From IMG/VR virus record IMGVR_UViG_2711768058_000002, positions 1 to 16,617 of that record: 16,617 nucleotides of DNA; one strand, given 5' to 3'. The number at the start of each line of letters is the position of its first letter. The first letter of the stretch is position 1. The notes below the pieces were generated by a model, which saw only the letters and a list, made by a program, of their open reading frames with translations, searched no databases and was not told where the DNA came from. The stretch comes from a virus (Duplodnaviria; Heunggongvirae; Uroviricota; Caudoviricetes). The position numbers were made by a program, and so were the translations under genes. Shown piece by piece: positions 1,152 through 1,384 of this stretch.

Positions 1152-1152
1152 T
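1045..1152. repeat. Direct repeat copy 2 (108 bp), partner of 128-235
   Basis: See copy 1; 107/108 identical, same orientation. Confidence 0.9.
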
Positions 1153-1182
1153 GTCTCACCCTTTACTGTGATAACTGTTACG

Positions 1183-1215
1183 CACAAAAACAACAGGCAT
1201 CCCGGAGGATGCCTG
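1183..1215 (-). terminator. Putative intrinsic terminator in minus orientation, downstream of I
   Basis: Stem CAGGCATCC / GGATGCCTG (1194-1215) with a 4-nt loop; on the minus strand it is followed by TTGTTTTTGTG. Confidence 0.5.
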
Positions 1216-1346
1216 TATCATGACTGAATAAAAATTCTGAATTTCTTCACATTTGAAAAAAAAGACTGTTGCGCTGATAAATACGCTGCGTTACTTTTTT
1301 TGTCGTGACATAAGAATAATTCTCTATAGTTAATCTTTGTATCTCT

Positions 1347-1380
1347 TCCCGCAGCTCCGCAACTCTGCGGGATTTTTTTA
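1347..1380 (+). terminator. Putative intrinsic terminator in plus orientation, against the late operon
   Basis: Stem TCCCGCAG / CTGCGGGA (1347-1354 pairing 1365-1372) with a 10-nt loop, followed on the plus strand by seven T (1373-1379). It directly abuts the I stop codon (1385-1387) on the opposite strand. Confidence 0.5.
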
Positions 1381-1384
1381 TGCT

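Follow-up and report, generated by a model that had tools for sequence, protein, structure and literature searches.

The spacer between tail assembly gene I and a duplicated 5' end of gene J (J') in the window carries a new allele of PasB, a known family of small RNAs (sRNAs). The window is the whole stretch of viral DNA that was analysed, 16,617 nt in length (IMG/VR record IMGVR_UViG_2711768058_000002, Caudoviricetes). Its late operon is lambda-like and lies on the minus strand, while the sRNA element lies on the plus strand. The best overall explanation of the spacer, and probably the correct one, is that a PasB-family sRNA gene on the plus strand and a J-leader hairpin on the minus strand are two separate modules. 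PasB was demonstrated by Northern blot and RIL-seq in E2348/69, at the same position as the window element (PMC8550237), and it is also covered in a survey (Zhu, Shabalina and Storz 2026, bioRxiv 10.64898/2026.05.13.724894). The locus and the sRNA are organized as follows.

1385-2032, minus strand: tail assembly gene I (PF06805, E = 4e-13).
1152-1384: I-J' spacer, 233 nt.
1029-1151, minus strand: J' remnant of 40 codons, the duplicated 5' end of J, which starts at 1151 and is part of a direct repeat.
1301-1379, plus strand: predicted PasB-family sRNA, its 5' end uncertain by about 5 nt (covariance-model match 1297-1379).
1330-1337, plus strand: TTAATCTT, the best-conserved single-stranded core and likely seed, nearly invariant across divergent body types.
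1347-1379, plus strand: intrinsic terminator of the sRNA, with an 8-bp stem, a 10-nt loop and U7.

As the earlier note had pointed out, this spacer is longer than that of lambda (NC_001416), where the I-J gap is 60 nt (within 15445-15504). Open reading frames of at least 20 aa within it are short and start in non-conserved sequence. The J' remnant, an incomplete CDS in the RefSeq annotation of the closest genome, arises from a direct repeat (122-240 and 1039-1157, 96% identical) that comprises the first ~113 nt of J plus a few leader bases and flanks a moron on both sides. The true J begins with an ATG at 234. Its leader is of the lambda type and that of J' is of the PasB type, so the two J copies derive from different phage lineages. 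The moron ORF between them (396-953, minus strand) encodes 172 aa from an ATG at 914 or 185 aa from a TTG and has no match in Pfam, PHROGs, NCBIfam or PADLOC. Its counterpart in E. coli O157:H16 (NZ_CP062876) is WP_000743175.1, hypothetical according to RefSeq. Between the moron and J', ATTACA-16-TATAAT (1002-1029, plus strand, 10/12) is the best sigma-70 consensus match in 1-2500 and is directed into J' in antisense; it may be a chance match or belong to the AT-rich region that controls the moron.

The identity of the plus-strand element follows from its position and from a covariance model. PasB of EPEC O127:H6 E2348/69 is an 83-nt RNA encoded on the minus strand (NC_011601, 1466343..1466261; PMC8550237 table S6), located between E2348C_1436 and E2348C_1437, and its Northern probe, AATCCCGCAGTGATCGCGGAGCT, covers the terminator (PMC8550237). 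RefSeq annotates these two genes as tail assembly protein I (ending at 1466255) and gpJ (starting at 1466496), so that PasB lies in the I-J spacer in antisense orientation and 5 nt separate its last U from the I stop. The window has the same geometry, with a T-run up to 1379, a stop codon of I at 1385-1387 and again 5 nt between them. The two spacers can be aligned end to end, the mapped 5' end of E2348/69 PasB falls at ~1301 of the window, and the pairwise identity between the window element and the validated PasB is 71%. A covariance model (R1), built from 22 other alleles with the window's body type left out, matches the window at full length (model positions 1-85; 1297-1379, plus strand) with 78.5 bits and E = 2e-13; it has no match in lambda. 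Decoys for this model were 80 unrelated bacterial loci that share the stem and T-run, found with the pattern CCCGCAG-N9-17-CTGCGGGATTTTTT; a contig scan with this pattern gave only unrelated bacteria among the matches listed. R1 reaches at most 40.3 bits on the decoys, and the score of the window therefore does not come from the terminator alone. This homology supports one of the two options in the earlier note, that the terminator ends a short plus-strand RNA, which would be autonomous.

PasB is not in Rfam 15. Over 1-2500, Rfam 15 gives chance matches only at E <= 1 (mir-3478, IRES_Bip, sR32), and its AgvB, AsxR and Esr41 models have no match there. Table S6 of PMC8550237 gives no EHEC homologue of PasB, and the tail and host-specificity entries in the Tree et al. 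2014 supplements place no sRNA at a tail-gene junction.

The plus-strand terminator pairs TCCCGCAG (1347-1354) with CTGCGGGA (1365-1372), followed by T7 at 1373-1379, and thus has the 8-bp stem and U7 of the PasB family. It folds with -13.3 kcal/mol (z = -3.3), a value equalled by one of 200 shuffles. A second hairpin of opposite orientation, described below, has z = -4.4. Both had been noticed in the sequence beforehand, the plus-oriented one as an 8-bp stem with seven T beside the I stop, and both are present as described and fold as predicted. It was also asked whether they are chance palindromes in AT-rich intergenic DNA that would be missing from related phages. Terminator-like sites in 1-2500 do not exceed the number expected from shuffles (3 found versus 2.2), and the stem CCCGCAG/CTGCGGG with T6 recurs by chance in unrelated bacteria. 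The site count being no higher than chance, the case for both hairpins rests on their conservation, and this is extensive. Position and strand are kept in hundreds of genomes, with constant stems and varying loops, and the homologue is experimentally validated; together with the folding scores, this makes an origin by chance extremely improbable. The PasB terminator is found at the same position in 87 distinct sequences, its stem constant in relatives and its loop present in at least eight different versions. In a variant with CCCTCAG, pairing is kept as U.G in the PasB sense only. Because the stem is invariant, it shows no significant covariation. A consensus fold of the PasB relatives consists of the terminator alone.

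Compared with E2348/69 PasB, the window allele combines a conserved frame with a divergent body. Both share the slot in the I-J spacer, the antisense orientation and the distance of 5 nt from the I stop, a terminator whose stem and U7 agree (30 of 33 positions identical), and a homologous upstream promoter block and UUAAUCUU-type core. In contrast, the RNA bodies are only 59% identical (30 of 51 aligned columns), the window RNA is about 4 nt shorter, the ACUCCUU motif of E2348/69 (ACTCCTT in DNA) reads AUUCUCU in the window, and its TATAAT is replaced by GATAAA. The seed of PasB has been placed just upstream of the terminator (Zhu et al. 2026, bioRxiv 10.64898/2026.05.13.724894). In this region the window keeps the core TTAATCTT, while the flanking ACTCCTT has diverged and a 5' stem is predicted for the window allele alone. 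That stem-loop (z = -2.8) was rejected as a conserved feature of the RNA, as it is absent from the E2348/69 and consensus predictions. Given a body identity of only 59%, the targets of E2348/69 PasB cannot be transferred to the window allele, which, with its diverged seed region, probably has a target set of its own. The allele is not confined to the window. The exact 88-nt sequence, with a 100% identical RNA body, is shared by six complete genomes of E. coli that come from different hosts, including NZ_CP062876, NZ_CP104788 and NZ_CP180600, all three 100% identical to the window over 1297-1384. Among the 5426 complete E. coli genomes, 23 have the allele with a match of at least 90%, and the 12 RefSeq records listed all lack an annotation at this locus.

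Conserved promoter elements lie upstream of the RNA body, at ~1236-1297, and offer two candidate promoters (P1 and P2) preceded by a CRP-like site.

1236-1251, plus strand: CRP-like site TCTGAATTTCTTCACA, TCTGA-N6-TCACA, which agrees with TGTGA-N6-TCACA at 9 of 10 core positions.
1269-1274, plus strand: candidate P2 -35, TTGCGC, 17 nt upstream of TACTTT, proposed from the sequence and alignment.
1276-1281, plus strand: candidate P1 -10, GATAAA, where nearly all relatives have (T/A/G)ATAAT or TATCAT.
1292-1297, plus strand: candidate P2 -10, TACTTT, of the TANNNT form kept in every allele.

TTGAAA at 1253-1258 is the candidate -35 of P1. TCTGA-N6-TCACA-TTT is the best-conserved upstream block and is retained in the window together with TANNNT, whereas the next ~20 nt are highly variable and one of the two candidate -10 elements, that of P1, is weakened. 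The CRP-like site occurs in 82 of the 87 distinct sequences collected by their terminator, and the block is kept even where the RNA body is replaced by an unrelated sequence (L136 type). Within the 16.6-kb window, one site with at most one mismatch to the CRP consensus was found and 0.47 were expected.

The reported 5' end of E2348/69 PasB lies 6 nt after TAGTGT, the equivalent of the P2 -10; the P1 -10 in that strain is a perfect TATAAT. Since this 5' end comes from read coverage and Northern size and not from TSS mapping, the choice between P1 and P2 and the geometry of the CRP-like site are left at the level of candidates. The centre of the site is 59.5-61.5 bp from the reported end, which is not a mapped TSS, and at about -44.5 relative to P1. 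The spacing relative to P2 and the reported 5' end would fit a class I CRP-dependent promoter. Where PasB is concerned, neither PMC8550237 nor bioRxiv 10.64898/2026.05.13.724894 refers to CRP or a promoter. The PasB level of E2348/69 in overnight LB exceeds that in DMEM, and Spf shows the opposite behaviour in the same data. Spf is repressed by CRP. The two conditions also differ in growth phase, which makes the link to CRP circumstantial.

A different promoter had been suggested in the earlier note, namely GTGACA (1305-1310) and TATAGT (1325-1330) separated by 14 nt, giving an RNA of 45-55 nt that would be mostly terminator. These hexamers, as well as AATAAT at 1315-1320, are all present, but they are not supported as a promoter. 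A 14-nt spacer is non-functional, being outside the working range of sigma-70, and a consensus scan did not call the pair. Moreover, the hexamers are located inside the mapped 83-nt transcript of E2348/69, which has GAGTAACAAAAACAACTCCTTCACATT at that place, and are missing from most alleles. A transcript of this kind is thus very unlikely. The RNA expected from the homology is ~75-82 nt long (~79 nt) and begins about 30 nt further upstream.

The GATAAA variant also bears on whether the window copy is alive. Should transcription in fact depend on P1, the window copy may be weak or silent. It could be a silent or decaying remnant of PasB without a functional sRNA, whose terminator only blocks stray antisense transcription into gene I. 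The missing key final T of the P1 -10 would agree with this, as would the rearranged state of the locus (J' duplication and moron insertion) and the natural loss of the promoter elsewhere (sodC-type loci, IS-disrupted L127). However, the RNA body is 100% identical in the six genomes mentioned above, and TANNNT, the TTGCGC -35 and the CRP-like block are intact. GATAAA itself is found only in L046 among 61 terminator-anchored variants, and additionally in L124-L126 of the J-anchored set; in all of these it accompanies a different RNA body. A silent remnant is consequently regarded as an unlikely description of the window copy, and an sRNA gene of the PasB family as the preferred one.

What such a gene would do can be judged from E2348/69. 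There, RNA-seq baseMean values are 482 and 1082 for PasB, compared with 4.8 for I and 15 for J. In the hfq comparison PasB changes by log2 -6.8 and -2.4, and RIL-seq recovers 37 partners, with PasB as RNA2 in at least 99% of chimeras. Its stability depends on Hfq and its targets belong to both the core and the accessory genome (PMC8550237). On this basis the window element is taken to be an sRNA that is expressed in the lysogen, acts in trans and depends on Hfq. The plus strand would hold a self-contained gene, with a promoter at ~1236-1297, an RNA of ~79 nt (~1301-1379) and a terminator whose U7 abuts the I stop. By homology with E2348/69 PasB, the RNA would be made in the lysogen, where the tail genes are silent, from a putative promoter with a weak -35 and a TANNNT -10, helped by CRP-cAMP bound ~60 bp upstream. 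Hfq would be bound via the terminator and U-tail, and the single-stranded body, with its conserved core UUAAUCUU, would base-pair in trans with mRNAs. Late transcription, modified by Q, would cross the sRNA gene head-on in lytic growth, which may both occlude the sRNA promoter and yield a fully complementary RNA.

This complementarity raises the possibility that PasB acts mainly in cis, as an antisense RNA to the I-J late mRNA that leads to its cleavage or blocks leaky expression of J. Between I and J, the late transcript is complementary to the RNA over its full length, and the gene is almost always found at one position and in one orientation. Yet PasB has 37 trans partners on Hfq in E2348/69 and behaves there as a typical RNA2, and it overlaps neither a coding sequence nor a ribosome-binding site, the J leader and its hairpin being outside the RNA. 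A mainly cis-acting role is for these reasons held to be rather improbable, and regulation in trans remains the favoured reading.

PasB shares several properties with other prophage Hfq sRNAs of EHEC and EPEC (PasA, PasC, PasD, AgvB, AsxR and Esr41), which are likewise short, end in a terminator with a U-tail, are expressed in the lysogen from lambdoid prophages and act on core and accessory genes. They differ from it in sequence and are located near lysis, Q or stx regions.

The second module of the spacer is encoded in the late-operon sense, and a related element precedes the true J.

1183-1216, minus strand: hairpin of the J leader, read in the late-operon sense and carrying a U-rich tract; the J' start codon follows 32 nt downstream.
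245-277, minus strand: second hairpin with a U-tract, of the lambda type, before the true J and also downstream of the moron ORF.

The first hairpin consists of a 10-bp stem (1216..1193) with six GC pairs and a 4-nt loop, followed by the U-rich tract TGTTTTTGTG (1192..1183), also given as UGUUUUUGUG. This bears out the minus-oriented hairpin with a U-tract reported in the earlier note. It folds with -19.9 kcal/mol, and none of 200 shuffles is as good. At the sequence level, 1183-1216 has the make-up of an intrinsic terminator, a GC-rich stem and then a U-rich tract, and the tract exists in the late-operon sense only. Among 12 distinct variants, 97.5% of cells are paired, as opposed to 31-48% in slid registers, while covariation in the helix is no better than in shuffles. 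Hybrid stems give U.G in the late-operon sense in v6, v11 and L140, and C.A in L135, which favours the opposite sense.

The same hairpin stands before an intact J in most J-anchored loci, including phages that have no moron, and it belongs to the J leader rather than to the sRNA or the moron. Lambda has an equivalent in its 60-nt gap, ACCGCC-UGCG-GGCGGU followed by UUUGUCAUUU, which likewise has, in late-operon sense, a GC-rich stem, a 4-nt loop and a U-rich tract and lies about 25-32 nt ahead of the J start codon; its stem sequence is unrelated to window 1193-1216. This equivalent shows that the minus-strand hairpin is not moron-specific. The earlier suggestion that it insulates the moron is hence too specific. 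The 245-277 hairpin, in turn, is homologous to the lambda I-J hairpin, with one compensatory pair change. No publication was found that names or tests the I-J hairpins of lambda or the window as terminators. Q-modified polymerase should read through such hairpins. The J-leader hairpin would accordingly be a terminator-like element that late, antiterminated polymerase passes. Its probable role is to keep polymerase that has not been antiterminated from reading on into J and the cargo beyond it, or else to stabilise the upstream mRNA at its 3' end.

The PasB-type spacer is widespread. It is present in 759 of 5426 complete E. coli genomes (~14%), at a median of three places per genome. A sample of 80 loci was collected from IMG/VR with the J protein, blind to the sRNA, and 75 of them have a strong R1 match, always antisense to J. 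The remaining loci comprise three with a different sRNA-like body, one disrupted by an IS and one cut by a contig end. When 63 distinct modules are aligned, promoter types and body types prove to be combined as in a mosaic.

Between PasB and J lies a site for cargo, which in the window is taken by the J' duplication and the orphan ORF. In 12 of the 80 J-anchored loci (L131, L175, L180 and nine others), it holds a cassette with sodC, encoding Cu/Zn superoxide dismutase, in the same orientation as PasB. The cassette replaces the promoter and CRP-like block up to just before a TAATGT -10, and PasB of these phages may be silent or rely on read-through from sodC. Three loci, L136 (~959-1033), L140 and L167, join the same promoter block to a non-homologous sRNA-like body with a longer terminator (CTCCCGTAATATTCGTGAGTATTACGGGAG and then T7-8), to which the PasB model gives only 17-19 bits. 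This body may represent a second sRNA family in the same slot. In L005, L013, L035, L042 and L114, the 3' end of an L136-like terminator is found directly upstream of a normal PasB promoter, which suggests two sRNA genes in tandem. In L127, an IS lies ~115 nt upstream of J, with a transposase ORF that starts MTKNTRFSPEVRQRAV, and breaks up the PasB promoter immediately beyond the CRP-like block.

This arrangement is reminiscent of the morons of lambdoid phages. In this concept of the Hendrix lab, a gene that has a promoter and a terminator is inserted between late genes, and it is expressed from the prophage. PasB, too, forms an autonomous transcription unit, equipped with a promoter and a terminator of its own and placed between two tail genes, and the same junction also takes sodC and the orphan ORF as cargo. 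The PasB cargo differs in being a non-coding RNA that is transcribed against the late operon.

These observations can be joined into a wider, and still tentative, reading. The I-J junction would be a recombining slot for sRNAs and cargo, served by a class I CRP-cAMP-dependent promoter and filled with alleles that carry different seeds, the window's among them; upon induction, head-on late transcription would switch off and sponge the sRNAs, and the J hairpin, whose conservation extends to lambda, would be a functional attenuator or insulator within the late operon. As a whole this is possible but doubtful.

The window allele leaves the general picture of prophage sRNAs unchanged, and the finding is mostly already explained by what is known of PasB. 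What it chiefly adds is the conserved CRP-like site, the mosaic alleles and the link between the J-leader hairpin and the I-J hairpin of lambda. Raw sequence alone led here to the gene of a validated prophage sRNA family that is unannotated in the 12 RefSeq matches listed and absent from Rfam. PasB-type genes are common and have mosaic promoters and seeds; ~14% of the complete genomes of E. coli contain the spacer, frequently more than once, and strains that differ only in their prophage alleles may therefore differ in their sRNA regulons. The conserved CRP-like site offers a simple, testable idea for how PasB-type sRNAs are controlled; if it is true, PasB-family alleles would tie prophage riboregulation to the carbon status of the host.
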